64,000 bases of DNA from Longimicrobiales bacterium. Lineage in GTDB: Bacteria; Gemmatimonadota; Gemmatimonadetes; Longimicrobiales; Gaopeijiaceae. Below are positions 653 to 16,540 of this stretch, in pieces (the first letter of the stretch is position 1; every line of letters begins with the position of its first letter). Under the pieces are notes generated by a model. It made no database searches. It was not told the DNA's origin and saw only the letters and a list, made by a program, of their open reading frames with translations. The stretch lies in NCBI GenBank assembly GCA_965198065.1, contig CBDAON010000004.1, forward strand, positions 704,001 through 768,000, given 5' to 3'. The translations under genes were made by a program, and so were the position numbers.

Positions 653-1909
653 TCACTTCCGAGGCCGCTCGGCGTCGTTCCCTCGAAGCCGCTCGGCGTC
701 GGCGACCCGGTCCAGGCCGATCATGTACGCCGCCGTCCGCCACGGCACCTTCCGCGCTTCGACCAGCTCGCGCACCGCCCGGTACGCCCGGAGCATCCGC
801 CCGTGCAACTCGCGATTCACCTGATCGAGCGACCAGGGGTGTTGCTGGAGGTTCTGGACCCACTCGAAATAGCTCACCACGACGCCGCCCGCGTTCGCCA
901 GGAAGTCCGGCAGGACCGGAATGCCCCGCTCCCCGAGGATGAGGTCGCCGATGGGGGTGACGGGAGCGTTTGCGGCCTCCACGACGACCTTGCACTCGAC
1001 GGTCGAGGCCACCGTCTCTTTGGCGATCACCCCGCCCAGCGCCGCGGGAACGAGCCAGTCGCACGGGATCGTCCAGAGCTCTTGGTTCGTGATGGGGTCG
1101 CCGCCGGGGAAGGTGCTGACCGGCTTGTGTTCCACGCAGCCGTGCTGGAACAGGGCCGGGACATCGAGGCCCTTCGGGTTGTGGAGCCCCCCGTCCCGGT
1201 CGCTCACCGCCACCACCTTGGCCCCGACCTCGTGGAGTAGTCGCGCGAGGTTGGCACCCACGTTCCCGAACCCCTGGATCACGATCGTCCCCCCCTCGAG
1301 GGGGAGCTTCACGTCCATCGCGTACTCCTGCATCACGTACATCACCCCCCGGGCGGTCGCCTCCTCGCGCCCGAGCGAGCCCCCGAACGCAACGGGCTTC
1401 CCGGTCACGGCCGCCGGCGTGTACCCAACCTTCTTGGAGTACTCGTCCACCATCCAGGCCATGACCTGGGCGTCCGTCCCCATATCGGGCGCGGGAATGT
1501 CGCGGTAGGGTCCCAGCACGATCGCAATCCGGCTGGTGAAGCTCCGCGTGAGCGCCTGCAGCTCGCGCTTCGACAGCTGGCGCGGGCCCACCTGCACGCC
1601 GCCCTTCGCGCCGCCGTACGGGATGTCTAGGAGCGCGGTCTTCCACGTCATCGTGGTGGCGAGCCCGACGACCTCCTCCTCGTCCGCCCCCGGATGGTAG
1701 CGAACGCCCCCTTTGCAGGGGCCGCGAGCCCCCGAGTGCTGCACCCGGTAGCCGCGGAAGCACTCGATACGCCCGTCGTCCATGCGGACGGGCACCTCGA
1801 CGGAGACCTTGCGGAAGGGCGACAAGATGAGCCGCCGCATGTATTCGGGAAGGCCGACGAGGTCGGCCGCCCCGTCGAACTGGTTCTGGATGATGGCTCC
1901 GGTCTTCAT
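653..1909 (-). CDS. gdhA: Glu/Leu/Phe/Val dehydrogenase (glutamate dehydrogenase-like)
   Basis: Motifs GPCKGGVRYHP, GGAKGG, DIPAPDMGT, TGKP, IQGFGNVG, EAANAP, PDFLANAGGVVVSYFEWVQN. Confidence 0.92.
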   Translation of the reverse strand: MKTGAIIQNQFDGAADLVGLPEYMRRLILSPFRKVSVEVPVRMDDGRIECFRGYRVQHSGARGPCKGGVRYHPGADEEEVVGLATTMTWKTALLDIPYGGAKGGVQVGPRQLSKRELQALTRSFTSRIAIVLGPYRDIPAPDMGTDAQVMAWMVDEYSKKVGYTPAAVTGKPVAFGGSLGREEATARGVMYVMQEYAMDVKLPLEGGTIVIQGFGNVGANLARLLHEVGAKVVAVSDRDGGLHNPKGLDVPALFQHGCVEHKPVSTFPGGDPITNQELWTIPCDWLVPAALGGVIAKETVASTVECKVVVEAANAPVTPIGDLILGERGIPVLPDFLANAGGVVVSYFEWVQNLQQHPWSLDQVNRELHGRMLRAYRAVRELVEARKVPWRTAAYMIGLDRVADAERLRGNDAERPRK

Positions 1910-2068: not shown

Positions 2069-2127
2069 CTAGGGGGCAGGACTCGAACCTGCGCGGGAAT
2101 TGCCCCGACCTCGGCTTTCAAGGCCGA
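2069..2127 (-). repeat. Displaced tRNA-Ser(TGA) 3' half; outermost att site
   Basis: Minus strand TCGGC-CTTGAAA-GCCGA, variable arm, GCAGG-TTCGAGT-CCTGC, CCCCT; no D arm or 5' acceptor strand. Confidence 0.85.
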
Positions 2128-2285
2128 ACAGGGCTTTCCGGCTAGATCCGTCTGGGTCTGAAGAGCCCTGTCCTGTCTTGGTCTTCCTGGATCACCTGTC
2201 CCGCAGAGTTCGCCTGAATCCCTCGGAGTTCACATGCGTGGGTAGCAAAATGGGTAACACACTCCGACCCATCAAAAGTCCTACC

Positions 2286-2706
2286 TCACTCCGAATCCAA
2301 CCCTTGGCGCATCGAGAGGAGGAAGGGCTCTCCAGCTCCCAGCCTGGCTTGGGCATCGGCGATCGTCCTCGCCGCAGGCAGATCGAGCGCTGCCTGGCCA
2401 GAGGCGCAGGTTACCGTGATGTGCATGGGCGTGTAGATGCCGCTTGTGATGAGAGCGGCCACCCCGTTCACGAACGAGTGCTCAGTCACCACCTGCGCCA
2501 CTCCCGAGGGGCATCGCGCCGCCGCCTCCACGACGTTCGGAGAAACGAGTCCACCGAGGAAGCTGTGAGCCCAAGGAATGTCGATCGTCTGAGCACTCGG
2601 GGTCCTCCCGGTTTCGATCACCGTTCGATAGCAGCCCGCCGTCACGGAGAGCAGGAGGATGCTCATGGAGAGAACTATTCATGAATGCAAACGATGAGCG
2701 TCTCAT
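2286..2706 (-). CDS. Bor/Iss-family lipoprotein, copy 1 (apparent +1 frameshift in the signal peptide near 2681)
   Basis: Lipobox-like TAGC; SFVNGVAALITSGIYTPMHITVTC resembles the lambda Bor FVNGLLGFITLGIYTP motif; GGAGGG RBS precedes ATG 2706 and removing one A gives MRRSSFAFMIVLSMSILLLSVTAGC. Confidence 0.8.
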
Positions 2707-2929
2707 GGTGGTCCCTCCGCGGGCAACAGGTAGGCTTTTCAGAAACCCCCGAACCTGAGCGTCACGATGCTCTCCCACCCATAACGTAGAGCGTCCGGTC
2801 CGCGTCACATTTGGGAGGCCGTGAAGACGGAGCGCGCCGCGTGGCCCGGCAAGAACCGGCAGCACTCGGCGGAGCCGGCCCGGCGATGGTCGCGCGCTCC
2901 GAGGTCGTCTCCACTACCAGGACGTGAGC

Positions 2930-3636
2930 ATGAGGGGATTCGCAGCGGTTTCGTGGGCCTCGGCCGTTACGGTCTGGGCCTCGACAGCCCTCGGACAGCA
3001 GCCTCCCCGGGGTCCAGGGAACCCACCGCCACCCCCATCCGCCAGGCAGCTACAGGACGAGCGTGGAGTCGACGTCTCCGTCTTCGGTCTCCTCTATACC
3101 GGCTTCGGCCGGGTCACCGACGGAGCGTCGCAGTCGAATTGGCTTCTCGCGGACGCCGCGTTCGGCGGCGGTCTGGGAGCGTCGCTCAATGCGTGGGACA
3201 ATTCAGGGTGGGCGTGGAGCTGTCCGTCGCCCGAACGCCCTACGAGCGTCGCGCCCGGGCGGGCAACGCGATCTCGGGTGCGGGAGATGCCACCGTCGGC
3301 ACGGTGCTCTTCACGGCTCGCCTGTCCCAGAGCGGCTTTCGGATCCCGGGGATCCCAGGCATCGGGGGCGTCGGATTCGGGAGCATTCCGGGGTTTGCCA
3401 CCTACCTTTCGGGAGGCCTCGGCGCGGTCTCGTACTGGCTGGAGGACCTCGATGGTGGCAACGCGGATTTCGCGTTCGCGGTCGGAGGCGGCCTCGAGTA
3501 CACCTGGTCGGGCGGAACCGTGGGCTTCCTGGAGGTGAGGCAACTCTGGGCCCTCCACGAGCGCGAGGGCGTGGAGACCTCGATGGCACGCCACTCGCGG
3601 ATCGAGCTGGGCTTGCGGCGTCCCGTGCGGAGGTGA
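2930..3636 (+). pseudogene. Outer-membrane beta-barrel-like protein, frameshifted near 3190
   Basis: Signal peptide and N half in ORF 2924-3538; C half (FRVGVELS, YLSGGLG, AVGGGLEY, IELGLR) in the frame of ORF 2821-3636. Confidence 0.65.
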
Positions 3637-3715
3637 GGGGGGCGGCGCTCCGCCGGAGGTGACGGGGTCGCCCGGCTACCCGGCGGAACGACGGGGTCGG
3701 GAGCGCGAGTGGCTC

Positions 3716-4758
3716 CTACCAGTCCTCCAAAGCGGGTTCGTCCGGGTCCGAGGAGAGGAACCGGATCAGCTCTGCGTTCACGATCTCGGGCACCTCTTCG
3801 TGCGGGTTGTGACCCACGTTCGGGATGAGCACGAGCTCGGCGTTCGGGAGCGACTCAGCCGCCCTCCGGGCATTCTCCGGGAAGTTCGGCCCATCTTCCG
3901 CCCCACCGAGCACCATGGCCTTCGTCTGGATGTGGGGGCCAGTCGTTCACCACGCTGTCGATCGAGCGGAGGTTGCCTCCCAGAGAGCGAACGTACCGGA
4001 GCCGTGGCCACTCGCCACTCAAGGCCTGTCCATAGCGAATGCGGAGGTGTTCCATGAACTGCGGTCTCCAATTCACATAGCGGTTCAGATCGGTTCGCAC
4101 GCCTGATTCGTAGACCTCCTGAGGATCCGCATCCACCTCGATCTCCCCGCTCATCGGGCGGAAGCCACGGCCCGCTCGGTTGTCGGTGAGACCGACGGCA
4201 TTGACCAGGACGAGGTGCGTCGTCATCTCCGGGTAGAGAAAGGCGAAACGGGTGGCCATCTGCCCCCCGATCGAATGACCCACGACCGCCGCCTTCGGAG
4301 ATCCTCAGGTGCTCGAGGACCCGTGCCGTGTTCGAGGCGTGCAGGCTGATGCTGTAGGGAAGGATTGGCTTGGAGGACTTGCCCCACCCGAGCCGATCCT
4401 TCACGACGACACGGAAGCCCTCGTTACGGAGGGCCTCGATCTGTTCTTTCCAATACCAGCCGTAGTAGCTCCCACCGTGAAGGAACACCACGGTCCGGCC
4501 GTTGGGCGGCCCGACCGGCGGCACATCCATATACGCGATCCGGACGTCCTGCCCATACAGATTGAGGTTCAGGAGGTGCACGGGATGGGGATACTCGATC
4601 TCCTCCATGTTGATGGAGATCGGCCCCCAGTCGGCCGGCGGTTCGGCCGGTGGTTGATCCCCCTGCGCCCGCAGCTCGACGCTTGCGAAGCAAAGCACGA
4701 GCAAGCAGATCGGCGGGACGGCAAAGAAGTCGCGAAATGACGTGCGTGGAAGCGTCAT
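3716..4758 (-). pseudogene. Secreted alpha/beta hydrolase split by two +1 frameshifts (~4290 and ~3937)
   Basis: VVFLHGG, DRLGWGKS, nucleophile elbow GHSIGG and C-terminal VGHNPHEE lie in three successive frames. Confidence 0.85.
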
Positions 4759-5088
4759 CGGTTTCCCCTGGCGTGAATTCGAACTCGGAGTGTGAACGGC
4801 CGCCACCACGGCCATCAGAACCCATTCCTACGGATGATACCGGAGGACCGACGACCCATGCAACCGAGTGAGGGCGGCCGGGTCGCGGCCGGAAGAGCGA
4901 ATGTTTGCCGCTGCCTTCGGGCAGCCCGATTCGGCGATAGTCGTTGTGGGAGAACGGAGGGGGCAGGTACGTGCCGTTACGAAGACGAATCACGGAACTG
5001 CGCCCAACTGAGAAGACACGGGAAAAGAATGCTGGGCGTTCCGGGGGGCAGCCGTAGGGAGGATTCGCTACCCTACGGGACCGCGCGG

Positions 5089-6414
5089 TCACAGCGTAAG
5101 CTGGAAATCCTCCACAAGTAGGCCGGGCAACGCCATCACTCGAGTTGAGCGCTCCCGATAGGTACGCGGGTCGACGAGGAGCTCCGGCTTCGTGGTCAGT
5201 CCGAGCAATCCCTCGCCCAGCATCCGGTACAGGCTGTCGTCAAAGCGCATCACGTTTAACGGGGCTTTGATCTTCCCTTCCTCGACCCAGAAGGAGGCGA
5301 AGCGGGTCATGCCGGTCATGCGGCAGTCATTGCGGTCCGAGTAGTTGCAGTACCAGGCGTCGCTGATGTAGACCCCGGTGCCCAAACGCTCGAGTACCTC
5401 GCTCTCGGGTAGATGGCCGGGCGCCATGAACAGGGACGTGGGGAGCTCGGAGTCGGCGTTGACGGGCTCCCCGAACTCCTTCGCCGAGCGCGACCCAGCC
5501 AGAGCGCCTCGGCAAGCCCCCTCCTCGATGAGCACTACCTTCTCGGGTTTGATGAACCCCTCCATTGTAAAGGGTGGGGCCATCCCGCCCCCGTGGTTCT
5601 CAGTGATGGTAATGGAGGGGTCGAAGCGTTCGTCACCCTTCACCATCTTCACCAGGGACGTATTCCCGGTTCGGTGGCCCTTGAGACCGAAGCCCTCCCA
5701 GCCCAACACCTGCATGAGCTCGGCCCCTGCCCGGGGGGCCAGGTAGGCTCGGTAGGCGCCGCGAGGCACCGTGCGCGGCGGGCGGGTCATCATCTCCAAC
5801 TCCTCCCGCGCTCGGTCCAGGCGGTCCCCCAGAGCGTCCTCATCCCAATTGAACCCGGCGTACCCGCCCTTCACGGCCTTGTCGCCGAGGTGGTGGCAGC
5901 TGAAGTCGAAGTTGAACGTGCTTGTCTCGAACCAGTTGCGTTGTCCAAAAGCGTTGGCGAAGCCTCGATCCAGCGTCCCGCTCGCCCAGATGCCGACCAT
6001 GTCCAGGTCATCAGCGGTGCGAGTGATGATGTCGATTGCCTCTCGGGGGTCCGATAGCGCCGATGGACGCACGTCCTCCGTATCCTGAACCGTTTCCGCG
6101 TAATGCAGATGCGGGTCCTCCCCGAGGTGCGCACGCTGGGAGCGCAGCTCCTCCAGCAAGCGCTCCACACCGATTCGGTCCCGCGTCAGGTCGCCGCTCA
6201 GGGGAACGGTGCCCACCGCGTGGCGGGCGCCCTCGATCAGGTCGATGGACACGAACCTCTGCGTCACATGGCCCGCCTGACGCACCCGGTTGTGGTTGAA
6301 CCGGGCGAAGTCCGAATCCTCACCCGCGTAGTAGGAGGTGAAGAGTTCCCCCGGCCGCAGCGCTGACGCGACGATGCCGGCCACCTCGAAAAAGAGCGTT
6401 CGTGGCTCCATCAC
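5089..6414 (-). CDS. tldE: TldE/PmbA-family protein
   Basis: ARFNHNRVRQ N-terminus, TGMTRFASFWVEEG and MRFDDSLY motifs; overlaps the tldD stop. Confidence 0.85.
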   Translation of the reverse strand: MMEPRTLFFEVAGIVASALRPGELFTSYYAGEDSDFARFNHNRVRQAGHVTQRFVSIDLIEGARHAVGTVPLSGDLTRDRIGVERLLEELRSQRAHLGEDPHLHYAETVQDTEDVRPSALSDPREAIDIITRTADDLDMVGIWASGTLDRGFANAFGQRNWFETSTFNFDFSCHHLGDKAVKGGYAGFNWDEDALGDRLDRAREELEMMTRPPRTVPRGAYRAYLAPRAGAELMQVLGWEGFGLKGHRTGNTSLVKMVKGDERFDPSITITENHGGGMAPPFTMEGFIKPEKVVLIEEGACRGALAGSRSAKEFGEPVNADSELPTSLFMAPGHLPESEVLERLGTGVYISDAWYCNYSDRNDCRMTGMTRFASFWVEEGKIKAPLNVMRFDDSLYRMLGEGLLGLTTKPELLVDPRTYRERSTRVMALPGLLVEDFQLTL

Positions 6415-7841
6415 TCCTCCCCGAACACCTCGACGTCCCGAAATCGGCAGGTTGGCGCGGCATGACCGGCGGAGATCCCCTGGTTGGGCTCGCCCTTGCC
6501 GCAGCTCGGCGTCCCCATCACCTCGAAGGTATCCCGATTCCCAACGCCATCGAGGCTCCGCCAGAAGACTGCCGAGACGCCCCGATATCGCGGGTCCCGC
6601 ACCATGCCCTTCACCTCCCCGTCCTCAATCAGCCATCCTACCTCGCAGCCGAACTGGAACTTGTTGCGGGAGTCGTCGATGGACCACGAGCGGTTGGTAT
6701 CCATCAGGACGCCACGTTCCACCCCACCGACGAGGTCCGCCATGCTATCGGTTCCCGGCTCCAGGTTCACGTTCGACATCCTGTCGATGGGAGGACGATT
6801 CCAGCTCGTGGCGCGGGAGTTCGCGACACCGGGCAGCCCGGATCGGGCCTGGGAGATGGCGCCCCCGAGGGGGCGTTCGAGAATACCCCTACGGATCAGG
6901 TAGGCCCGCTCGGCTGGGGTGCCATCATCGTCGAACGCGTAGCTGGCCGCTTCCCCCGGGATGTCCGGCGCAAAGGTCACGTTGAGGAGGGACGAGCCGT
7001 ACCGGTAGCGGCCGAACATGTCCAGCGTAACGAAGCTGGTGCCCGCGTAATTCCGCTCGTCGCCCAGGATTCGATCGAGCTCCAGCGGGTGACCGATGCT
7101 CTCGTGAACCTGCAACACCATCTGGCTCGGCATCAGCACCAGGCTGGTGGTCCCGCTGGGGCAGGTCGGGGCATCCAGTAGCTGGAGCGCTTCGGCGGCG
7201 ACACGGGCACTCTGAGACACGTAGCCGATCCGCTCCAGCTCCTCCAGGCCGCCTTGACGGTAGGAGGAGTGACCCAGCGTACGAGACTGAGAGCGTTCCC
7301 CTCGGTTGGCCACTGCTCCGAGCACCGGGTGGAGGGTCGCCGTGGACTGCTCCATCCAAGCCCCGTCGCCGGAGACCAAGAGAGATTCCCGGCTCGTATG
7401 AGCGATTTGAGCGTACCAATCGACGATGGCGTCCCCGGCCTTGAGCCCCCTCGAAGCCATCCGGAGCAGGTCGAGCTTCTCGCTGAGGCTCCACCGGTCC
7501 CATGGGATCCTACCGGGACGGTGGTCGTTTCCCTGCCCGGTCAGGCGCGGATAGTCCTTCGGCGCAATGAGCGCGTACGCGCCGGCGGCCCGAGCCCAGC
7601 TACGCGCCACCTCGAAGGCTCGCGTGAGCCCCCGGGGGGTCAGGTCGCAGGTGGCCCCGTAGCCGATGCCCCCACCGTCCAGCACGGTGACCATGGCGCC
7701 CGCATCGTGGTACGTGTAGGGGGGCTCCACGACACCCCGGCGCACCGTCAGCACGTGGGCGCTGTCCTCCACGAGACGCAGGGTCCAGTAGTCCGCACTC
7801 GGAGCGGAATGCGCAAACTCGCGCGCGATCTGGTCTAGCAC
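6411..7841 (-). CDS. tldD: TldD-family metalloprotease
   Basis: HESIGH zinc motif, PPIDRMSN, C-terminal CGKGEPNQ. Confidence 0.9.
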   Translation of the reverse strand: MLDQIAREFAHSAPSADYWTLRLVEDSAHVLTVRRGVVEPPYTYHDAGAMVTVLDGGGIGYGATCDLTPRGLTRAFEVARSWARAAGAYALIAPKDYPRLTGQGNDHRPGRIPWDRWSLSEKLDLLRMASRGLKAGDAIVDWYAQIAHTSRESLLVSGDGAWMEQSTATLHPVLGAVANRGERSQSRTLGHSSYRQGGLEELERIGYVSQSARVAAEALQLLDAPTCPSGTTSLVLMPSQMVLQVHESIGHPLELDRILGDERNYAGTSFVTLDMFGRYRYGSSLLNVTFAPDIPGEAASYAFDDDGTPAERAYLIRRGILERPLGGAISQARSGLPGVANSRATSWNRPPIDRMSNVNLEPGTDSMADLVGGVERGVLMDTNRSWSIDDSRNKFQFGCEVGWLIEDGEVKGMVRDPRYRGVSAVFWRSLDGVGNRDTFEVMGTPSCGKGEPNQGISAGHAAPTCRFRDVEVFGEE

Positions 7842-8153
7842 GGGGATGCGTCGGCCCTCGCTGCGTCGTCTTTCGGGGCGATGTCCGCGCGGACTCCTGC
7901 GGGGGCAGGGAGGAGGATCGGGAAGGTGTGGTGGACGAGCAACATGTGAGGCCGGTCTCGCGTTGGCAAATCCGGACTCTCATCCTGCGGTAAACTGAAA
8001 GTCCTCTGTCCCCGGTTCGAGCCGAGCGGGCGACTAACTCCCCCCTCTTTCAGCACGTTCCCAGCAGGAGGGCCCGGACACACACCAGAGCCCGATCTGC
8101 GGAGAGGGGGGCTTAGATCGTGACCGGCCGATTCTGTAAGTCGTTGTGCCGCA

Positions 8154-8210
8154 CGGAGGGGGTGGGACTCGAACCCACGTGGGGAGTTACCCCCAACCTC
8201 GGTTTTCAAG
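8154..8210 (-). repeat. Displaced tRNA-Ser(TGA) 3' half; att junction between elements A and B
   Basis: 53/57 identical to 14023-14079; identity stops at the anticodon loop (CTTGAAA). Confidence 0.92.
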
Positions 8211-8375
8211 GCGGGATAGGGCTTTCCGGCTAGATCCGTCTCGGTCCGAAAGGCTCTGTCCCGTCTGGATTCTTTGGAATCTGCTTTCCGGCGGAGTCCG
8301 TCGTGATCCCTCCAAAGTCGGATGCCCGGGTAACAAACCGGGTAACACTCCCTCAACCGGGCTGACGGCTTTTCG

Positions 8376-8780
8376 TCACTCCGAATTCGGCCCCCGTCCC
8401 ATTGGGAGAAGAAAGTCCTCCCCGGCGTCCACCCTGGCTCTCGCTTCCGCCAGGCTCCGCACTGTCGGCACATCGAGCGCCGCCGTGCCTGCAGCGCACG
8501 TGACGGTGATGTGCATGGGAGTGTAAATCCCTCCAGTAATGAACGCGGCCACGCCGTTCACAAACGAGTGCTCGGTAACGACGCGTGCCACTCCCGACGG
8601 ACACCGAGCTGCCGATTCTACTAGGTTCGGGGGAACGAGACCCCCGAGGAAGCTGTGCGCCCACGGGATGTCGATAGTTTGCGTGCCCACGGGCGTCGCG
8701 GTTTCGATGACAGCTCGGTAGCAGCCCGAGGAGACCGAGAGCAGCAGAATGGTCGTGGTAAGAATGAGGGGTCTGATCAC
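8376..8780 (-). CDS. Bor/Iss-family lipoprotein, copy 2
   Basis: Lipobox-like SSGC; SFVNGVAAFITGGIYTPMHITVTC; clear paralogue of 2286-2706. Confidence 0.85.
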   Translation of the reverse strand: MIRPLILTTTILLLSVSSGCYRAVIETATPVGTQTIDIPWAHSFLGGLVPPNLVESAARCPSGVARVVTEHSFVNGVAAFITGGIYTPMHITVTCAAGTAALDVPTVRSLAEARARVDAGEDFLLPMGRGPNSE

Positions 8781-8887
8781 GGCACAACTCCTGACAATAG
8801 GGTGAACCGCAACTCGTGACTACAGGCGAAGATGCGGGCGTGAAGAACCACTTGCAAGAGAAGCGGCCCGAGTCCCCTACCCCACCG

Positions 8888-9178
8888 CTAGTCTTCTCCC
8901 CGCAAAGAGGCCCACCCTGCATCGGTTCTCATAACCGACATGAGCGTCTGTAGGACAACAGTTCCCGGGAGGGTGTTACCCGAATTGTACCTTTGCCCCC
9001 CCCTCTCTACGGTGGTGTGAAGAGCGGGAATCAGCTCACCGACACCCCCCAGGGAGCCCCTGTCTGGGTCCCATCCTGGAGACTCCTTCACCTGTAGCTC
9101 CGCAAGATTCAGAAACCGTTCGTGCCCCTCGATGCCGTTCGACGCCTTCACGAACCTGTATAGGTACTTGGTGTTCAT
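8888..9178 (-). CDS. Hypothetical protein, possibly only the 5' part is real
   Basis: AAGGA RBS, follows the SPFH gene; 3' half overlaps non-coding-looking repeated motifs. Confidence 0.3.
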   Translation of the reverse strand: MNTKYLYRFVKASNGIEGHERFLNLAELQVKESPGWDPDRGSLGGVGELIPALHTTVERGGQRYNSGNTLPGTVVLQTLMSVMRTDAGWASLRGED

Positions 9179-9209
9179 CGAGGGGTCCTTTCGTACATGA
9201 GGAGTGCCA

Positions 9210-10004
9210 TCACGGAGCGACGTTCACCAGCGCACCCTGCGGAACGAATACGCAGCGGCTAGTTTCGCTCGCGCAGACCTCGCGCTGCATCTCGATCTCC
9301 TGGAGCGCCACAAATTGCGCCGGGCTCAGACCGAGCGAGTTCCGGTAGGCGTTGTCCGCCAAGGCGCGGGACTGTTCCGCCGCTAGGCGTGCGTCCTCGG
9401 CTAGCCTACGCTCGTTCTCGGTGAGCTGTCGTTGCTGCTGGGTTGCAGTTTCGACGCGCTGACTCTCAACGGCGTCCGGTGGATTCGCCCGACCCACGGT
9501 AACCTGTATGAGCCGAAGCGGTAGCTCCGCATCCAGGAGGTAGATCTCCATCTCTGCCGTGACTTCGGCGTCGATATCGTCGATTGCCTCCGTGGAGATC
9601 GCCGTCTCATTCATTCCGTGTTGCCGGACTGCCTGTCTCACTCGATTTTGGAACTCGATGGCTACGTTCTGATCGAACCATTGTACTCCGAACCCCTCGA
9701 TCAGCCGTACGCTGTTCGTGACCTGTAGGCGAATCACGGCGTTGAAGTCGAGCGGAACACCATCCGACGACATGATGTCCTCGAACGCCATTGAGAACTG
9801 CTGGGGCCGGATGTCCACGTAGGTCGGTGTGGTCGTGATCCACACCCAATTACGTCCGGTTGGCGTCGCGGAGTCTACGACCCCGCCACTCCCGAAGACG
9901 ATCGGGTATCGAGTCAGGACCGCTTCCTCGCCGGGGCCAGGAGTCACAGCTCGACAGCTTGCCAGAGACCCTGCCGCTAGAAGCAGAAGGACCGAACGTC
10001 TCAT
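9210..10004 (-). CDS. SPFH/band-7 domain lipoprotein
   Basis: AAGGAGGT RBS before ATG 10004; lipobox LASC; SSDGVPLDFNAVIRLQV motif and C-terminal coiled-coil segment. Confidence 0.8.
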   Translation of the reverse strand: MRRSVLLLLAAGSLASCRAVTPGPGEEAVLTRYPIVFGSGGVVDSATPTGRNWVWITTTPTYVDIRPQQFSMAFEDIMSSDGVPLDFNAVIRLQVTNSVRLIEGFGVQWFDQNVAIEFQNRVRQAVRQHGMNETAISTEAIDDIDAEVTAEMEIYLLDAELPLRLIQVTVGRANPPDAVESQRVETATQQQRQLTENERRLAEDARLAAEQSRALADNAYRNSLGLSPAQFVALQEIEMQREVCASETSRCVFVPQGALVNVAP

Positions 10005-10542
10005 TTGATGTACCTCCTTGGTGTTCACGTGCTCCTCATCCTCCATCAGAAGACCGCCTAGTCAGGAGGGCACACTAATGGCCCTCTTTCCGTCGTGGTC
10101 GGCGGCTAATTCACGAAGGGCACTCCCACGAGGATACCCCCGCTTATTATGCCCTCTGACTGACTAGGCCACAAAGCGAGCTAGGGAATCGAACGCTAGA
10201 GGACGCCTGTCTCGCCGCTCATCGTTCTTCCTTCCTCGCCGCAGCGGTCCGGCTCGACCAGTACCCGGAGGTCGTCGCCGCCTTCCTCCTCACTGGCGGT
10301 CGGCGCAGTCTTCGGGCTTCCCCTTTCGGCGCTCCATGTAGGGCCCGAGGATTGACCTGCCCCCAAAAGCGGTACCACCTAGAGTGTTAGTCCAAGCACC
10401 TCCTTTTGGCTGGGGGGTGGTCCAAGAAGCAGAGGTAGGTTGAGCAGCTTTGGGTCTGGCCGGATCGCTTCGGGGGCCGGGGGTCGATAACCCAGAGAGC
10501 TGTGCGGTCGATGCGTGTTGTATTCGCGCCGCCACTGCTCGA

Positions 10543-11235
10543 TCAGCACCTTCGCCTTTCGCGCTTCAGCAGCTCGTTTCGGAGCGTGCCGTTAAAGCTC
10601 TCATTGTAGCCGTTCTCCCACGGGCTGCCCGGCTCGATGAACAGCGTCTTCACGCCTAGCTCACCGAGCCACTGCCGAACCACTCGGGCCGTGAACTCCG
10701 GACCGTTGTCGGAGCGAAGATTCGCCGGTGGACCGTGCTCGGCAAACAGCTCGCTCAGCGTCTGCAGAACATCGTCCGCCTGAAGCCTGCGAGTCACCAC
10801 GATCGCCAGGCACTCCCGGCTGTACTCATCCAGCACCGTCAGCATCTTGAGCGGCCGTCCATCATGCGTCCGGTCCGCCACGAAGTCATACGCCCATACA
10901 TGGTGTCGGTACAGGGGCCGCAGTCGGATACAAGAACCGTCGGTCAGCCACAGCCTTCCTCGTTTCGGCTGCTTACTTGGCACCTTGAGCCCCTCCTGTC
11001 TCCAGATCCGCTCCACCCGCTTGTGGTTCACGGCCCAGCCCTCCGTCCTCAGCATCCCCGTCACCATCCGGTACCCGTAGCGTCCAAACCGTCGGGCCAC
11101 CTTCACCACGTCCTCTCTCAGCGCCTCCTCATCTTCGCTTCGCTTCGGTATCCGACGCTGCGTCGAGCGTGCCTGGCCCAACACCCGGCACGCCTTCCTT
11201 TCGCTCACCCCAAGCCGCTGCCGCACGTGCACCAC
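10543..11235 (-). CDS. IS3 OrfB DDE transposase; C-terminus frameshifted by a short deletion near 10555
   Basis: WAYDF, LRSDNGPEF, PGSPWENGYNESFNG; expected tail IEQWRREYNTHRPHSSLGYRPP continues in another frame. Confidence 0.9.
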   Translation of the reverse strand: MVHVRQRLGVSERKACRVLGQARSTQRRIPKRSEDEEALREDVVKVARRFGRYGYRMVTGMLRTEGWAVNHKRVERIWRQEGLKVPSKQPKRGRLWLTDGSCIRLRPLYRHHVWAYDFVADRTHDGRPLKMLTVLDEYSRECLAIVVTRRLQADDVLQTLSELFAEHGPPANLRSDNGPEFTARVVRQWLGELGVKTLFIEPGSPWENGYNESFNGTLRNELLKRERRRC

Positions 11236-11258
11236 GCACCGCCTGCGCCACTCGGGGC

Positions 11259-11540
11259 TCAGTAGTTTCCCTTGGAGGCTTCCTTCAAAATCAGGTTGTC
11301 GACCGTCAGATCCGCCACCGCCTGCTTCAGGCGTTGGTTTTGCTTCTCGAGCTCCTTCAGACGCTTCGCCTGGCCCACCTTCATTCCCCCGTACTCCTTA
11401 CGCCACCGGTAGTATGTCTGCTCGCTCACCCCCAGCTCACGGCACACTTGCTTGACCCTCTTCCCGTTCGCCAGGGCCACCTCCGCCTTGCGTAGCTGGT
11501 TGATGATCTGTGCCGGACTCAGCCTCTTTGGTGCGGCCAT
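11259..11540 (-). CDS. IS3 OrfA HTH protein
   Basis: VCRELGVSEQTYYRWRKEYGG, RLKELEKQNQRLK; ends at the GGGAAAC -1 slippery heptamer. Confidence 0.92.
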   Translation of the reverse strand: MAAPKRLSPAQIINQLRKAEVALANGKRVKQVCRELGVSEQTYYRWRKEYGGMKVGQAKRLKELEKQNQRLKQAVADLTVDNLILKEASKGNY

Positions 11541-11760
11541 TGTGCCCTCCCCTTTCGTGTCTTGACCCCGTCCAGATTCTAAAACTGGACTCGGTCTCGT
11601 TTTAGGGGGTCAGATCAACCGGGCTAGGAAGGGTCGGACGCCTAGACGGCTAGTGAAACAAGCTTCTCCGGGAGGCAAGCGTCGCCCTTGCGGTTTAGAG
11701 CTTCCACCCGAATGATTCGGTCGGGCTCTATCCCGAGGTCCTTCCCATCTGGAGGTCTCC

Positions 11761-12991
11761 ATGGACCGCACACGCGCTGGGCGCTTTGCCCCTCTGTCTT
11801 TGATCGTATTCGTCGTTACCGCGTGGTTTGCGGTGCCATCCGGCGCGACGGCGCAGCAAGATGATCGCCTCGCCGAGCCCTTCTACGGGATCACTACGGA
11901 TGGCGATCTGGTCGCTGACCTCTTCCCGATACGTGCGACGGGGGTCTCGACCGCCCCGATCGTGGAGGCAGCCAGGCACTACTTAAGCACATTGTCGCCC
12001 GGGCAGATCGCACGAACGAGCTTCGATCTGGATGACAGTGAGTGGCGACACTGGAGTAATGTCCCCGTTGGCAACACTCCTCGGGCCGGCCTGTCCTTCA
12101 GAGATATGAACGACGCTCAAATGGAGGCGGCGTTCGCGATGGTGCGTGCGGGGATGAGCGCTCGCGGATTCAACCTGGCGCGGAATATCATGCGCATCGA
12201 CGGCTACCTGGCCGACGTTCTCGACAACCTAGAGGGATAACGGAGAGTTCCTCTATTTCATCGACATCTTCGGGGAGCCGCATGAAACCGAGCCTTGGGG
12301 ATGGCAACTCGATGGGCATCACCTGGTCGTCAACTTCTTCATCATGGGAGATCAGGTCGTGATGTCGCCCAACTTCTGGGGATCCGAGCCAACCCGGATC
12401 GAGACGGGCAGGTTCGCGGGAGTGGAAGCCCTGCAGGAGGAGCAGGATGTCGGCTTAGCCTTCATGGAGTCCCTGCGGCCCGATCAGGTTCGGACAGCAA
12501 CCGTCGAGACGGACAAGACCTCCAACAACCAGTTGGCCGCCGCCTTCAGAGATAATGTGATCATTGAGGAAGCCGGCATCCGGGGAGACCAACTGGACGC
12601 GGCGCAGCGCGAGCTCCTCATGGACGTCGTCGGCATCTGGGTCGGCCACATTCGGGAAGAGCACGCCGGCATCAAAATGGCCGAGGTTCGGGCCCATCTG
12701 GACGAAACCCGGTTTGCCTGGGTCGGCGACGTGGGTGACGATGCCCTGTACTACTACCGGGTCCACAGCCCCGTCATGATCATTGAGTTCGATCACTCGA
12801 TCCCGGTCAGCTTCCCCGTAGAGCCTCGGATGCCTTCGCGAACCCACATTCACGCGGGCGTTCGGACTCCGAACGGAAATGACTACGGAAAGGATCTGCT
12901 CCGGCAGCACTACGAGCAGCACGCCAACGACCCGAACCACGTGCACGATCATCCGTACCCAGCGGGGTCGGCGACAGCCGGCGGTCCATGA
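11761..12991 (+). pseudogene. Secreted DUF3500-like protein with a +1 frameshift near 12239
   Basis: WRHWSNVP, WGWQLDGHHL, YYRVHSPVMIIEFDH, HIHAGVRTPNGNDYG; deleting one A in GGATAACGGA restores ...LEGYGEFLYF. Confidence 0.8.
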
Positions 12992-13381
12992 TCTCCTGCG
13001 GTCCGGTCATCCGGTGGCCTGAGCGTCGGGTATCGGGTCGGTCCATCAGGTAGCGAACGCGGCGGGCGTCGGTGAACGGCGCCCGCCGCGAGCGTTCTGT
13101 AACCCCGGGGCTACCCTAGCCTACGGCACGCCGACTCCCCTTCCTGGAGAGTCGTCTTGGTATCCGCACCGCTGAAGGGACGTACGACCCTCCGAATGGC
13201 ACTCTTGAGGTGAGCGCCCACGTAAGCTCGACATCGGCCGAAAGTGCAGTCAAAGGCGACACTTACAGTGCGCCCCATCTAGAGCAGAATGTGACTCGCC
13301 GAAGCCCCCCAGGGAGGGGGTGTAAATGGGTCCCCATAGAGAGGTACGATCTACGAGTGCGCCTTCTTGACTCGGGCCTTC

Positions 13382-13522
13382 TTAATGGTGTTGGGCGGCG
13401 GTGTAGACGAGGAAGCTCACGACACCGAGGAAGCTCACGATACCTACGTAGGCCGCGATCACGCCGACCCACTGGAACGTCCACCATCCCCGCTCGATCA
13501 GATTCGCCTGGTGCGCGTTCAT
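13382..13522 (-). CDS. 46-aa small membrane protein (below the ORF-track cutoff)
   Basis: GGAGG RBS; MNAHQANLIERGWWTFQWVGVIAAYVGIVSFLGVVSFLVYTAAQHH*. Confidence 0.55.
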   Translation of the reverse strand: MNAHQANLIERGWWTFQWVGVIAAYVGIVSFLGVVSFLVYTAAQHH

Positions 13523-13719
13523 GATGCCCTCCCGTGTTCATCGGACGAAGCCGAGGATTTCGCGGCCCGGAGCTCGTCCCCGGGTCTGCCCGCCGACTTA
13601 GACGTACCTACGCGAAATAGGGGTTGGGGGATTCAGGGCACCATCAGCCTGACCCTCGGTCAGTTGGTCCCATCTAGAGCAGGACTTGACTTACCGACAC
13701 CCCCCAGGAGGGTTACACG

Positions 13720-13997
13720 CTCCACGACCATCGCCACACGGCCGCGCCGTCCACCTCGCGCGGGCCGGCATGCCCCTGAACCTGCTCCAGGGCCAGCTCG
13801 GGCATACAACGATCTCAATGACAATGCGCTACGCCCGGCTCCACCCGGACTACTCGGACGTCCGCGAATACTTCGACCGTGTGGGTGAGCGGTTCGGGCT
13901 GGCCGCTCCGGAAAAGGTTTCCGCTTCTCCGGGTAACAAAACGGGTAACACTCCCTCCGAAGAGCCCCTCGAAGCGGCTCCGCGCGAGCACGTCTGA
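13720..13997 (+). pseudogene. C-terminal remnant of a tyrosine integrase
   Basis: HD-x-RHTA (frameshifted), then AVHLARAGMPLNLLQGQLGHTTISMTMRYA (box II LGH...Y); N-terminal and core domains absent. Confidence 0.85.
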
Positions 13998-14022
13998 TGC
14001 GGCGTAAGTTGTTGCGGGAGAA

Positions 14023-14110
14023 CGGAGGGGGTGGGACTCGAACCCACGTGGGCTGTTAGGCCCAACCTCGGTTTTCAAGACCGGTACCTTAGCCGCTCGG
14101 TCACCCCTCC
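14023..14110 (-). tRNA. tRNA-Ser(TGA), CCA not encoded
   Basis: GGAGGGG/CCCCTCC acceptor stem, discriminator G, anticodon loop CTTGAAA, long variable arm, GTGGG-TTCGAGT-CCCAC T arm. Confidence 0.95.
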
Positions 14111-14198: not shown

Positions 14199-15887
14199 TC
14201 AATGACGGAACAGCCTTCGCCCCGTGAACACCATGGCGATCCCGAGGTCGTCCGCCGCGGCGATGACCTCTTCGTCCCGCACCGACCCCCCGGGCTGAAC
14301 GATAGCCCCGACTCCCGCGGACAAGGCTTCATCCACCGCGTCCCGGAAGGGGAAGAACGCGTCCGAGGCGAGCACGGAGCCCTGGAGATCGAGGTCCTGG
14401 TCCCGTGCCTTCTGAACGGCGAGCCGGGATGAATCGACCCGGGACATCTGACCCGCACCGATCCCGAGGGTCACCCCACCTCGCGCGAGGACGATGGCGT
14501 TCGACTTCACACCATAGACGGCCGCCCAGGCGAACCGCAGATCTTCCAGCTCCTCCGGGGTCGGCTCCCGCTTCGTCACTGTCTTCCAGCCTGGATCGGG
14601 CCCGCCGAGCAGGGGCGGAACGGGCGGCGACTGCGCGAGGAACCCGCCGTAGATCCCCCGCACCGCCACCGGCGCGGGGTCCCGCCCGTGCGCGGCGAGG
14701 AAGCGGGCGGCCCTCCGGGCGTCCTCCTCCGTCCGCTCCCGCCCCTCGAAACTCGCGAGCGCAGCGGCCACTGCGGCAGGGAGGGCGGCCGCCCCTTCGG
14801 GCTCGGGAAGGGTCAAGATCCTCACGTTCTTCTTTCGCGTGAGCACCTCCATTGCATCCGGGGACACGGCCGGCGCCACCAGACACTCCGTGAAGAGCTC
14901 CCTGATCGCTTCCGCAGCCGGGCGGTCGATCGTGCGGTTCACCGCGATCACCGATCCGAACGCGCTCACGGGATCGGTCGCGAGCGCGCGCTCGAAGGCC
15001 TCCGCGACGGTGTCCCCGACCGCGATCCCGCACGGGGTCGTGTGCTTCACGATCACAACCGCCGGACGGGGTGAGACGGCGAACGGAGAGAGGCAGAGGA
15101 GCGCGCCATCCAGGTCCAGCAGGTTGTTGTAGGAGAGTTCCTTTCCGTGGTGCTGCTCTAGCGAGGCGATCCCCCGTCGGCCCGCCCCGTCCGGCGCGTA
15201 CAGGGCCGCCGTCTGGTCGGGGTTCTCCCCATACCGGAGGTCGGACACCTTCCGGTGCCGGAGGGTCAGCTCCCCGGGAAGCTCCGTCTCTCCCTCTCCG
15301 GCCGTCGCTCCCAGGAACGCGGACACGGCAGCGTCGTAAGTCGAGACGTGGCGGAAGACCTTCGCCGCGAGCTCCCGCCTGATCGCTCCGCCGTCCTCGG
15401 CTGCCCCGAGCGCGGAGAGCACACGCGCGTAGTCCGCCGGATCCACGACAACCCATACGTGCGCGTGGTTCTTCGCCGCGGCCCGGATCATCGCGGGCCC
15501 GCCGATGTCCACCTTCTCCATCCCGGCCTCCACGGGGACCCCCCCGGCCGCCACGGTCTCGCGGAACGGATAGAGGTTCACAGCGACCACGTCGATCGGC
15601 CGATACCCCTGGGTCTCCAGGGCCTCCATGTCGCCCACGACGTCCCGGCGCGCGAGGATCGGTCCGTGCACGGCCGGGTGGAGCGTCTTCACCCGCCCGT
15701 CCATCATCTCGGGGAACTGCGTGACGGAGGCCACGTCCGTAACGGGAGCGCCGGCGGAACGGAGCGCACGAGCGGTTCCGCCCGTCGAGAGGATCTCGAA
15801 GCCGAGGCCGGCGAGGCCCCGCGCGAAGTCCTCGATCCCGGTCTTGTCCGAAACGGAGAGTAGCGCGCGTCTGGCCGGAGAAGTCAT
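14199..15887 (-). CDS. purH: Bifunctional AICAR transformylase/IMP cyclohydrolase
   Basis: RALLSVSDK, GRVKTLHP, LRYGENP, GAGQMSRVDS, SDAFFPF. Confidence 0.97.
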   Translation of the reverse strand: MTSPARRALLSVSDKTGIEDFARGLAGLGFEILSTGGTARALRSAGAPVTDVASVTQFPEMMDGRVKTLHPAVHGPILARRDVVGDMEALETQGYRPIDVVAVNLYPFRETVAAGGVPVEAGMEKVDIGGPAMIRAAAKNHAHVWVVVDPADYARVLSALGAAEDGGAIRRELAAKVFRHVSTYDAAVSAFLGATAGEGETELPGELTLRHRKVSDLRYGENPDQTAALYAPDGAGRRGIASLEQHHGKELSYNNLLDLDGALLCLSPFAVSPRPAVVIVKHTTPCGIAVGDTVAEAFERALATDPVSAFGSVIAVNRTIDRPAAEAIRELFTECLVAPAVSPDAMEVLTRKKNVRILTLPEPEGAAALPAAVAAALASFEGRERTEEDARRAARFLAAHGRDPAPVAVRGIYGGFLAQSPPVPPLLGGPDPGWKTVTKREPTPEELEDLRFAWAAVYGVKSNAIVLARGGVTLGIGAGQMSRVDSSRLAVQKARDQDLDLQGSVLASDAFFPFRDAVDEALSAGVGAIVQPGGSVRDEEVIAAADDLGIAMVFTGRRLFRH

Positions 15888-16540
15888 GGGAACCGTGGAA
15901 GCTCGGAGGAGAGGACGAAGTGGCGGCCCCTGCCAGGGATCGAATCGGCCGAACTGCCCTCTTCGAGGGCGCGCACGAGCACGTCCACGGCCGCTGGATA
16001 GAGCAGGTGCTCCACCTCCTGAACCCGACTGGCCAGCGTCTCGGGCGTGTCGTCCGGGAGCACGGGAACCGGCCACTGAGCCAGGATGGCTCCGCGATCG
16101 TATTCCTCGTCCGCGAAGTGGACCGTAGCGCCGGAAATGCGCGTCCCGGACTCGAGCACCGCCTCGTGGACGCGAGCCCCGTACATGCCTCTCCCCCCAA
16201 AGCCGGGAAGGAGCGCCGGATGGATGTTCAGGATCCGGTTCCGAAAAGCCTTCACCACCTCGACCGGAACCAGCCGGAGATACCCCGCGAGGAGGATGAA
16301 GTCCACGGACTCGTCGGTGAGGCGGGCGAGGAGCCGGCTCGCGAACGTGCCCGGGTCGTCGTCCGGAGGGATGACGGCGGACGGGATTCCCCTCGCCTTC
16401 GCGCGCTCCACCGCTCTGGCCTGCGCCCGGTCCGTGACGAGAAGCACGACCTCCCACGAGTGCGACCCGGCTCCGCCATCGGCGAGCACCTCGAAGTTTG
16501 TCCCTCGCCCTGACGCGAACACCGCGGCCCGAAGGCTCAC
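15884..16540 (-). CDS. purN: Phosphoribosylglycinamide formyltransferase
   Basis: ASGRGTN, LAGYLR, NIHPALLP, SGATVHFADEEYDRG. Confidence 0.95.
   Translation of the reverse strand: MSLRAAVFASGRGTNFEVLADGGAGSHSWEVVLLVTDRAQARAVERAKARGIPSAVIPPDDDPGTFASRLLARLTDESVDFILLAGYLRLVPVEVVKAFRNRILNIHPALLPGFGGRGMYGARVHEAVLESGTRISGATVHFADEEYDRGAILAQWPVPVLPDDTPETLASRVQEVEHLLYPAAVDVLVRALEEGSSADSIPGRGRHFVLSSELPRFP

Follow-up and report, generated by a model that had tools for sequence, protein, structure and literature searches.

The window, the 64,000-nt stretch of a Longimicrobiales genome analysed here, carries a stack of three units (A, B and C) behind a tRNA-Ser(TGA) gene, with host genes on both sides. 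The features are as follows, with window positions and strands; codes such as G222 denote related genomes.

653..1909, (−): host flank, Glu/Leu/Phe/Val dehydrogenase
2071..2126, (−): att1, the outermost displaced tRNA-Ser 3′ half; a separate allele, final 3 nt missing
2127..2260, (+): arm 1, attR arm for unit C as well as for the stack as a whole; direct repeat at 2240-2260
2286..2706, (−): bor1; Bor domain ORF at 2286-2666
2924..3636, (+): unit C cargo, gene in two frames for a predicted outer-membrane beta-barrel protein
3645..4920, (−): alpha/beta hydrolase gene, cargo of unit C; two extra bases shift the frame
4928..4967, (−): att4, the terminal 13 nt of a tRNA-Ser 3′ half with a trailer; remnant of the attL of unit C
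4968..5052, strand (.): 85-bp multi-copy segment with 4 other copies; abuts att4
5089..7841, (−): unit B cargo, TldD (6411-7841, HESIGH motif) and PmbA (5089-6414)
8130..8153, (−): trailer on the attL side of unit B, not followed by an arm-type repeat
8154..8210, (−): att2, displaced tRNA-Ser 3′ half; serves unit A as attR and unit B as attL core
8215..8348, (+): arm 2, attR (P-side) arm of unit A; direct repeat at 8328-8348
8376..8780, (−): bor2, lipoprotein gene of the Bor family, intact
9210..10046, (−): unit A cargo, SPFH/Band 7 protein; N-terminus lipobox-like as read from the sequence
10342..11628, (−): IS3-family insertion sequence, one of dozens of such copies in this genome
11761..12991, (+): DUF3500 gene running over two frames, cargo of unit A
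13661..13713, (+): copy of a dispersed repeat (55-78 bp, 10 genome copies), at which the integrase is truncated
13714..13997, (+): tyrosine-integrase C-terminal stub, residues ~309-390 of the 390-aa G222 integrase
13931..13951, (+): direct repeat GGGTAACA-N4-GGGTAACAC within the C-terminal part of the integrase, predicted to be the arm-type site of attL
13996..14022, (−): attL-side trailer with conserved CAAC(A/G)ACTTA motif; a similar trailer lies 3′ of the tRNA in integrase-bearing relatives
14023..14110, (−): tRNA-Ser(TGA), the integration target; forms attL for both unit A and the complete stack
14199..16540, (−): host flank, purH (ORF ending at 14199) and purN (15884-16540)

The displaced 3′ halves lie downstream of the tRNA-Ser(TGA) gene and in its orientation. 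att2 is 93% identical to the gene and has another variable arm, and att1 is 76% identical and has a paired T-stem (GCAGG/CCTGC). In att1, att2 and the relatives the homology boundary is the anticodon loop; identity starts at CTTGAAA, which supports the first-pass proposal that a tyrosine integrase crosses over in this loop and builds a tandem array. That annotation had also placed three copies of the tRNA 3′ half, and our coordinates agree with it; a fourth piece, att4, had been overlooked. The att4 match is 36 bp at 86% (E 0.005 alone) and contains the att1-type T-stem CCTGC, with neither the anticodon core nor an arm-type repeat. A tRNA end followed by the CAAC(A/G)ACT trailer occurs at exactly three places in the 3.05-Mb assembly, namely the tRNA, att2 and att4. 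Given att4, the lower of the two ~6-kb units originally described is in fact two units (2128-4951 and 4968-8153). Because the att4 match is so short, units B and C could also be a single element carrying a relic. The conserved trailer of the family opens every unit, and its motif is a putative accessory-factor site. Arm and bor lie at the far (attR) end of a unit relative to the tRNA. In G001, G118, G168 and G204, purH also precedes tRNA-Ser. A tRNA array at C4:1710874-1713237 was considered and set aside as unrelated and family-wide.

Unit A (8211-14022), the youngest, keeps the integrase stub with its direct repeat and a full attR arm. The stub converges on the tRNA 3′ end, is 62-91% identical to the corresponding stretch of the G222 integrase, has a frameshift near 13740 and passes the PF00589 cut-off at 13737-13841. 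The GGGTAACA direct repeat occupies the same integrase position in G222, G204, G118, G010 and G137. Further copies of the dispersed repeat were found at 13266-13343 and 9018-9083, and the DUF3500 gene shows 0 differences from a contig of run X1. The earlier statement that no intact integrase, replication, conjugation or capsid gene is present agrees with our scans (23 ORFs against Pfam, 8 against PHROGs), except that the stub had been missed. No integrase was detected in units B and C by Pfam and profile scans. The genome (assembly 88% complete) has 34 PF00589 matches, and intact members of the cognate integrase clade number 0/34. The doubled depth of the X1 contig over unit A (7.2 vs 2.9-5.2) was considered as a sign of excision; this reading was dropped since it was not repeated in other runs and gives no copy number.

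Unit B (4968-8153) retains an att core and trailer and nothing else of its att sites, and it has neither bor nor arm. The 85-bp segment at its outer end was rejected as an IS end and is a multi-copy gene leader: the copy at C4:1210255 precedes an ‘IHRRSLWQV’-type gene, and no such gene follows 4968-5052. Unit C (2128-4951), the oldest, kept its attR arm, and its attL is reduced to 13 nt. The hydrolase of unit C is 98.5% identical to an intact copy at C4:2079743-2081028; its frameshifts may be assembly errors, but reads from that second copy could also account for the run evidence. The beta-barrel gene at 2924-3636 has no Pfam match; an ESM Atlas feature match of its product to OMP_b-brl/OmpW clusters (0.95-0.97) serves as a lead only. 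The cargo had been described as mostly envelope or secreted, which does not hold, as it includes 2.75 kb of TldD/PmbA and the 1.3-kb IS3 element.

Our Pfam analysis confirmed both Bor genes (Lambda_Bor, 65.1 and 62.3 bits, cut-off 25), and they are the only PF06291 matches genome-wide. A lipoprotein signal peptide is present in bor2; bor1 is frame-broken there, near 2681, between an RBS-linked ATG (2706) and the Bor domain, and the break is identical in sequence in runs X1 and X8. The two genes are sisters (support 99/97) in a tree of 33 homologues, with dS 1.14 and dN/dS 0.14, and the gap between arm and bor is 25-27 bp in both units. This shows that the link between arm and bor was stable in a sub-lineage over dS ~1.1, and this part of the first-pass idea stands. 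The bor gene is likely a passenger beside the arm. A close subfamily comprises 15 further metagenome proteins, 55-71% identical (P0002, P0004-P0015, P0017, P0018), which the bor-context counts below leave out. The named homologues are mostly from Gemmatimonadota. Scans of IMG/VR with bor, a bor alignment and the G222 integrase returned no relatives. The Bor/Iss proteins of E. coli confer serum resistance, which is not implied for the window genes.

The arms were reported as homologous and gap-free, and we found the same: 2121-2260 and 8209-8348 are 72.9% identical, and the arm+bor block aligns over 610 nt at 73% (E 1.7e-91). The arms are identical at 97/134 positions vs 24/58 at the four-fold sites of bor (Fisher P 8e-5), a test that presumes a common history of arm and bor. 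The window arms align almost gap-free with the attR arms of G118, G081, G083 and G222, and a profile built from those four bor-less arms returned the window arms as its top genome matches (E 2e-6 and 4e-3). A six-arm model gave 18 matches in 11/149 family genomes, 3 of them training sequences. With G222 included, 19 arms were found in 12 related genomes, and 15/19 abut a tRNA-Ser fragment. Outside this genome no Bor match lies beside an arm (0/17 arms with inner flanking sequence). The 140-base arm is a generic attR arm of an integrase family that targets tRNA-Ser. BLASTN searches (arm+bor against 40 relatives, arm against 200 family genomes) gave short pieces only and no full arm; BLASTN was too insensitive here, and the profile searches later found the arm. 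The arm repeat alone occurs in 43 viral stretches of IMG/VR, 6 with some integrase; none matches the rest of the arm and none has a tRNA-Ser, so the repeat alone is not specific.

The reverse search started from bor. No arm or integrase match was found at bor loci in genomes (0/80), metagenomes (0/19) or relatives (0/26), nor at 29 family bor loci apart from one weak, non-adjacent arm score (E 0.075); these sets overlap in part. That score belongs to locus L321, where it and a 26-bp tRNA-end match (E 0.006) lie on opposite sides of bor. At locus L229, bor lies 200 bp from tRNA-Ser(TGA), on the tRNA 5′ side, outside a 1.5-kb island and without an arm. Both loci are weak signals against reading the stack as decayed elements.

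Homologues of the integrase stub were found in 16/300 family genomes. An intact tRNA lies beside the gene at 13/16 of these loci (9 Ser(TGA), 3 Ser(CGA), 1 Gln), and integration is in mirror orientation in three genomes. Near-full-length copies occur in G222, G010, G204 and G163. Intact relatives carry integrase, Xis-like and replication genes; G204 has an integrase, an AlpA/Xis regulator and, next to the integrase, a small replication module (phrog_270, HTH_17, HTH_36). Small att-bounded islands with unrelated cargo also occur in G067, G146, G127, G118, G137, G152 and G168; their integrases are cut at about residues 132, 152, 180, 316 or 334, or are absent. Tandem island copies were found in G083, G109 and G137, and no Bor match was present in 32 such island regions. 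No intact parent turned up for which both att ends are mapped (the G204 contig ends at 9 kb), and no attR was found for G010; G001 has a duplicated tRNA 3′ half at contig ends and no full arm. In G024, of another genus, an apparent empty site shows the succession ispG-like gene, gdh-like gene, tRNA-Ser, purH, and 20 kb of sequence there holds no att copy; the gdh-like gene is only 67-70% alike and reversed. A search for a gdh orthologue beside tRNA-Ser gave only homologues of 49-61% identity, in 11/150 genomes.

Among assembled contigs of conspecific runs, att1 is bridged by those of X1, X2, X5 and X8, att2 by contigs of X2, X5 and X9, and att4 by contigs of X5 and X9. The contigs across internal junctions come from four other studies; the source sample may be X1. 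At 14022, the tRNA junction is bridged by no contig among those listed for the 8 runs. Since contigs bridge the internal junctions and the bor genes differ at dS ~1.1, the arrangement is neither an artefact nor a recent duplication. In conspecific strains from three studies the 5′ half of bor2 is lost by a 446-bp deletion (8610-9055): X9 has the joint 8609>9056, X5 has the same gap, and X2 leaves the reference at 8609. The fusion protein produced by this deletion, P0016, is encoded in another assembly, on a contig of 3.03 Mb. Contigs of X2, X5 and X9 pass into foreign sequence where bor1 starts (2680-2682). No attB or attP joint was found among the joints covered (15/67 and 4/4) in the 8 conspecific runs, whose contigs drop rare forms, and no empty site or excised circle of the same species was seen in assembled contigs.

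We consider it probable, at about 75%, that the stack consists of three decayed integrative elements, likely successive integrations by one integrase family, two of which likely inherited a bor gene beside the arm. Each incoming circle would cross over in the anticodon loop CTTGAAA, give the tRNA its own 3′ half and push the previous 3′ half outward. Integration in the order C, B, A with this displacement would account for the four 3′ ends being different alleles. The parent was probably compact, with an integrase, an Xis-like protein, an HTH protein and a replication initiator (compare G204 and, in part, G222); its mobility genes may later have been removed by deletions and IS insertions. One sub-lineage probably captured bor beside attP while still mobile, and two islands would descend from it. 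Because both arm and bor are constrained, the arm+bor blocks likely diverged in elements that still worked. Since unit A and the whole stack retain both att ends, the arrival of a cognate integrase would in formal terms make them excisable. The first-pass annotation had offered the reduced remains of related larger elements as an alternative to its own preference, and this alternative is the one supported, as is the claim that the units are non-autonomous, integration and transfer genes having been lost.

It is unlikely that this bacterial family hosts an undescribed pool of compact 3-7 kb tRNA-Ser cargo cassettes that have lost the integrase and retained both attachment arms, are excised and stacked by integrases acting in trans and form an integron-like array for gene capture at the tRNA, with bor as a fixed passenger beside attP in one genus-level lineage. 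If att-only cassettes do move in trans, they would form a new cargo-shuttling system.

We regard as improbable a second history, in which one arm+bor island was duplicated in place long ago, by double integration of one circle or by unequal recombination between att copies, with later replacement or loss of the central parts. It would agree with bor1 and bor2 being mutual closest sampled relatives, with an arm+bor link in this genome only, and with the known tandem copies of one element in SGI1 (according to part of PMC5704250) and in tycheposons. However, dead copies would be expected to drift neutrally, yet the gap-free arms are 72% identical vs 41% at four-fold sites; att1 and att2 represent distinct tRNA alleles, both with a paired T-stem, and an unrelated third unit lies between the two.

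The preference of the first-pass annotation was a family of small non-autonomous satellites with a fixed core of att arm and bor, mobilised in trans. The constant spacing of bor, its purifying selection, the two att ends of unit A, the 34 PF00589 matches in the genome and the close metagenome subfamily of bor all fit this idea; nevertheless we consider it very unlikely, and already largely refuted. Arms elsewhere have no bor nearby (0/17), the bor loci examined (80+19+26+29) have no adjacent arm or integrase, and the middle unit is bor-less. In G001, of the same genus, a bor fragment lies at tRNA-Ala(TGC) and adjoins repeats of another integrase family. Unit A holds an integrase stub, and the attL core of unit C is gone. 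Some strains carry damaged forms of both bor genes, and such loss also speaks against a fixed core. No cognate-clade integrase is intact in the assembly, and no bor relative was found in IMG/VR. Finally, an origin of the arm+bor pair by misassembly or by recent local duplication can practically be dismissed: several cargo frameshifts occur in the assembly, two of them absent from all runs compared, but the pair is only 73% identical (dS 1.14) and att1, att2 and att4 are all bridged by run contigs.

The locus shows accretion and decay clearly in a little-studied lineage. As a by-product, it defines an integrase family with a predicted arm-type repeat, trailer and crossover point that targets tRNA-Ser(TGA) and tRNA-Ser(CGA); the family can serve as a marker when flexible DNA is mapped in these genomes and is a candidate tool for site-specific integration.

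The literature listings searched, which leave out most subscription journals, gave no paper on these elements. Compared with phage satellites and PICIs, the window units lack an integrase, an AlpA/Xis regulator and a primase or replication module; packaging and capsid-interference genes (terS, capsid) were absent from the scanned window ORFs and, as far as the intact parents were read, from the ORFs beside their integrases. The bor genes resemble lambda Bor and E. coli Iss (PF06291, phrog_260) in a domain above cut-off, a lipobox and a role as passengers of mobile DNA, but here there are no nearby phage genes, a C-terminal extension of ~40 aa is present and the host is not an enterobacterium.

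The remaining comparisons rest on parts of the cited sources. Prochlorococcus tycheposons share an inward-facing tyrosine integrase at tRNAs including Ser-TGA, compact size, ecological cargo and a small replication module, which here is found in the relative G204 (10.1101/2020.12.28.424599). According to that source, a tycheposon is recognised by its integrase lineage together with hallmark genes; the window units are without integrase or replication module. At the Dehalococcoides ssrA locus, several att-bounded islands with cargo likewise follow a single RNA gene in tandem; part of them lack mobility genes, and some are considered fixed by now (PMC3146451); they use a serine recombinase and a tmRNA target, in contrast to the tyrosine integrase and tRNA-Ser here. 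Islander class A (PMC4383910) shares the anticodon-loop crossover, the 3′ halves in one orientation and the tandem array, and 3′-end damage of the 3-nt type seen in att1 is described there; however, it wants an integrase gene for each array member, and here one stub serves three units.

The closest likeness is to CIMEs (cis-mobilizable elements), for which Pavlovic 2004 and Bellanger 2011 are reportedly the references, also on tandem accretion. In section 2.3 of PMC5704250 the accretion model is set out for the ICESt1 family and the tRNA-Lys composites of Streptococcus agalactiae. As in that account, the window units are decayed, lack integration and transfer genes and lie in tandem at one target via chimeric att sites, and unit A and the whole stack have both attL and attR (core, trailer and both arm repeats). 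In contrast, units B and C each lack one att end, the stack has no functional partner, and the parent is without conjugation genes in the stretches read, with cis-mobilisation putative. The locus is thus a new example of known island accretion and decay.

The islands at the tRNA-Ser(TGA) locus of the window are real and form a tandem, non-autonomous stack of a familiar type. The source assembly (G000) comprises 3.05 Mb in 4 contigs, of which C4 carries the window at 704001-768000, and is 87.6% complete. The first-pass annotation had described two units of about 6 kb with no intact integrase. Our analysis recovered the displaced copies of the tRNA 3' half and upheld the tandem arrangement, but two features had been overlooked, namely a fourth tRNA-end piece and an integrase stub.

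14023-14110, minus strand: tRNA-Ser(TGA) gene
8154-8210, same orientation as the tRNA: att2, copy of the tRNA 3' half, 93% identity
2071-2126, same orientation as the tRNA: att1, copy of the tRNA 3' half, 76% identity
4928-4967: att4, fourth tRNA-end piece
13714-13997, directed at the tRNA 3' end: C-terminal stub of a tyrosine integrase
8211-14022: unit A, with the integrase stub, DUF3500, IS3, Band 7, bor2 and arm 2
4968-8153: unit B, with TldD and PmbA, without bor or arm
2128-4951: unit C, with a hydrolase, a predicted beta-barrel, bor1 and arm 1

The assembly contains exactly three instances of the pattern CCCCCTCCG-N5-12-CAAC(A/G)ACT: behind the tRNA, behind att2 and at 4928-4967. On the basis of the integrase stub, the fourth tRNA-end piece and this pattern, the stack therefore consists of three units. 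The stub is the only integrase sequence found in it. GC content is 0.62-0.65 in the island region versus 0.69-0.70 in the flanks, where host genes lie: gdh at one end, purH with purN at the other. Homology of att1 and att2 to the tRNA has its boundary at CTTGAAA in the anticodon loop. The direct repeat GGGTAACA-N4-GGGTAACAC has three occurrences in the genome (arm 1, arm 2 and within the stub). Over the initial 250 nt of units B and C it is absent, every site differing at 7 or more of 16 positions. From their position and by analogy to lambda-type integrases, the GGGTAACA pairs would presumably act as arm-type integrase sites.

Blocks 2071-2674 and 8157-8764 share 73% identity across 610 nt. 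They include the gap-free 140-bp arms (72.9% identity) reported at first pass, and the ORF behind each arm is indeed of the Bor family. In a tree of 33 homologues, bor1 and bor2 were sisters (support 99/97). Their proteins are 73% identical, with a dS of 1.14. Both arm and bor are under constraint: identity was 97/134 in the arms versus 24/58 at bor four-fold sites (P 8e-5), and dN/dS was 0.14. The att halves are distinct alleles whose T-stems are paired and whose variable arms differ. In addition, att1 is without its last 3 nt, and such damage to displaced tRNA fragments is described in the Islander survey (PMC4383910). We infer from the sequences that bor was captured once beside attP, and that two working arm+bor elements then diverged and integrated separately at tRNA-Ser.

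We then compared arm and bor across genomes. The window arm aligns almost gap-free with the attR arms of four relatives (G118, G081, G083 and G222), and a profile from those four arms alone returned both window arms as top matches (E 2e-6 and 4e-3). A six-arm model matched 18 times across 11 of 149 family genomes, and three of those matches were training sequences; a tRNA-Ser fragment adjoins 15 of 19 arms (the 18 matches plus that of G222). Because two of the 19 lie at contig ends, 17 were testable, and none of these arms in other genomes had a Bor profile match within 1.5 kb, while both window arm loci matched in the same test. Conversely, bor loci were screened for arm and integrase. The best 80 of 143 in GTDB genomes, 19 from metagenomes and 26 from relatives gave no match to either, and the 29 family loci gave no more than one weak score, which was not adjacent; these sets overlap in part, and the surveys leave out 15 close bor homologues from metagenomes. 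Eight of the best 80 loci lie within 1.5 kb of a tRNA (Arg, three Ala, two Leu, Gln and Ser). The same-genus genome G001 has a bor fragment that adjoins tRNA-Ala(TGC) and repeats of a different integrase family. Of 313 family genomes, 29 had bor at E 1e-22. Thus, bor is a patchy accessory gene, often near tRNAs, and the arm, as judged from these alignments, is generic to the integrase family and not bor-specific. The 'Bor-tagged' family with a fixed core of arm and bor, as initially proposed, is not supported outside this genome, although the core describes one sub-lineage, that of the bor1/bor2 sisters. A bor-like fragment of 31 residues (48%, E 5e-4) was also seen in an IS-rich region at C4:531415-531507.

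Homologues of the stub were found in 16 of 300 family genomes, with an intact tRNA beside the gene at 13 of the 16 loci (nine Ser(TGA), three Ser(CGA), one Gln(TTG)). Their C-termini encode the GGGTAACA-N4-GGGTAACAC repeat as G-N-x-x-G-N-T-P, followed by a trailer resembling that behind the window tRNA, a putative accessory-protein site; stub, arm and trailer belong to this family. Near-full-length genes occur in G222, G010, G204 and G163. Behind the G204 integrase come an HTH_17 (Xis-like) gene, a small HTH-like gene shared with G222, and a replication initiator (phrog_270). The readable part of this island, up to the contig end at 9 kb, showed no capsid, terminase or relaxase. Four query integrases, run against the window's assembly, matched only the window stub, another stub at tRNA-Gln and a single weak site. 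The portions of the literature that we searched yielded no paper on this integrase family.

The same integrase family and arm were observed in mirror orientation in G067:C90, G146:C3 and G168:C19, and also in G163, G197 and G154; here the island sits on the tRNA 5' side, a 5' half has been displaced and purH lies beyond it. A single integrase family appears to use the symmetric anticodon site in both directions. Another target of this family, tRNA-Ser(CGA), is the last gene of an array of 17 tRNA genes on one strand plus a divergent tRNA-Pro (C4:1710874-1713237), which holds the sole copies of several isoacceptors and is conserved across the order.

Small islands (2-7 kb) whose cargo is unrelated, and whose integrase is cut at differing residues or absent, occur in G118, G067, G146, G127, G137, G152 and G168, and tandem tRNA-Ser halves occur in G083, G109 and G137. 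None of 32 such island regions carried bor. Such variation in cut point is a better match to random decay than to a fixed minimal core, although the searches favoured sequences retaining a stub or arm. In G109:C27 and G137:C51, an insertion of about 85-135 nt interrupts the T-loop of several tRNA-Ser 3' halves, three times within 3 kb in G109. In G001, tRNA-Ser and a 3'-half copy lie at the ends of C27 and C5, each followed by an identical flank of 100+ bp, which suggests another island or a rearrangement at this site.

Twenty sequencing runs contain part of the window; eight, from five studies, were compared as assembled contigs, of which X1 may be the source sample. Contigs bridged att1 in X1, X2, X5 and X8, att2 in X2, X5 and X9, and att4 in X5 and X9; among the pieces listed, none bridged the tRNA junction. 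Loss is visible at strain level. In X9 and X5 contigs, position 8609 is joined directly to 9056, so that bor2 loses its 5' half as far as a dispersed-repeat copy, and an X2 contig departs from the reference at 8609. This deletion yields a fusion protein (P0016), which another assembly encodes on a contig of 3.03 Mb. Contigs of X2, X5 and X9 pass into foreign sequence at 2680-2682, in the bor1 signal-peptide region, where the window's own bor1 frame is also broken, and X9 is without 2804-3016. The checks suggested at first pass, for an empty attB and an excised attP, found neither joint among those listed (15 of 67; 4 of 4) for assembled contigs, which drop rare forms; an empty site was seen only in another genus (G024), with its gdh-like gene reversed and 67-70% alike.

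The dispersed repeat (55-78 bp), possibly a MITE or IS end, has ten genome copies: three in unit A (13661-13713, 13266-13343, 9018-9083), one at C4:920756-920817 and six more. The integrase stub is truncated at one copy; another lies about 430 bp from the tRNA-Gln stub, and another at the bor2 deletion end. The 3.05-Mb genome is heavily laden with mobile elements, having 34 matches to PF00589 and IS3 in dozens of copies. The alpha/beta hydrolase cargo (3645-4920) has an intact second copy, 98.5% identical, among IS3 elements at C4:2079743-2081028, so this cargo, by sequence identity, has probably moved recently within the genome. A predicted small membrane-peptide ORF (MNAHQANLIERGWWTF...; 13390-13590, minus strand) lies in a segment with four other genome copies.

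The stack would have been built by three integrations in the anticodon loop, unit C first, then B, then A, and the parent may have been a compact integrase-Xis-replication element. In layout, the intact parent is similar to tycheposons (bioRxiv 2020.12.28.424599) or PICI-like elements; packaging genes were not found in the stretches of it that were read. The stack itself fits the CIME and tandem-accretion model (PMC5704250, section 2.3) and the anticodon-class arrays of Islander, which counted 125 tandems among 3919 islands (PMC4383910), and it resembles the integrase-less ssrA islands of Dehalococcoides (PMC3146451).
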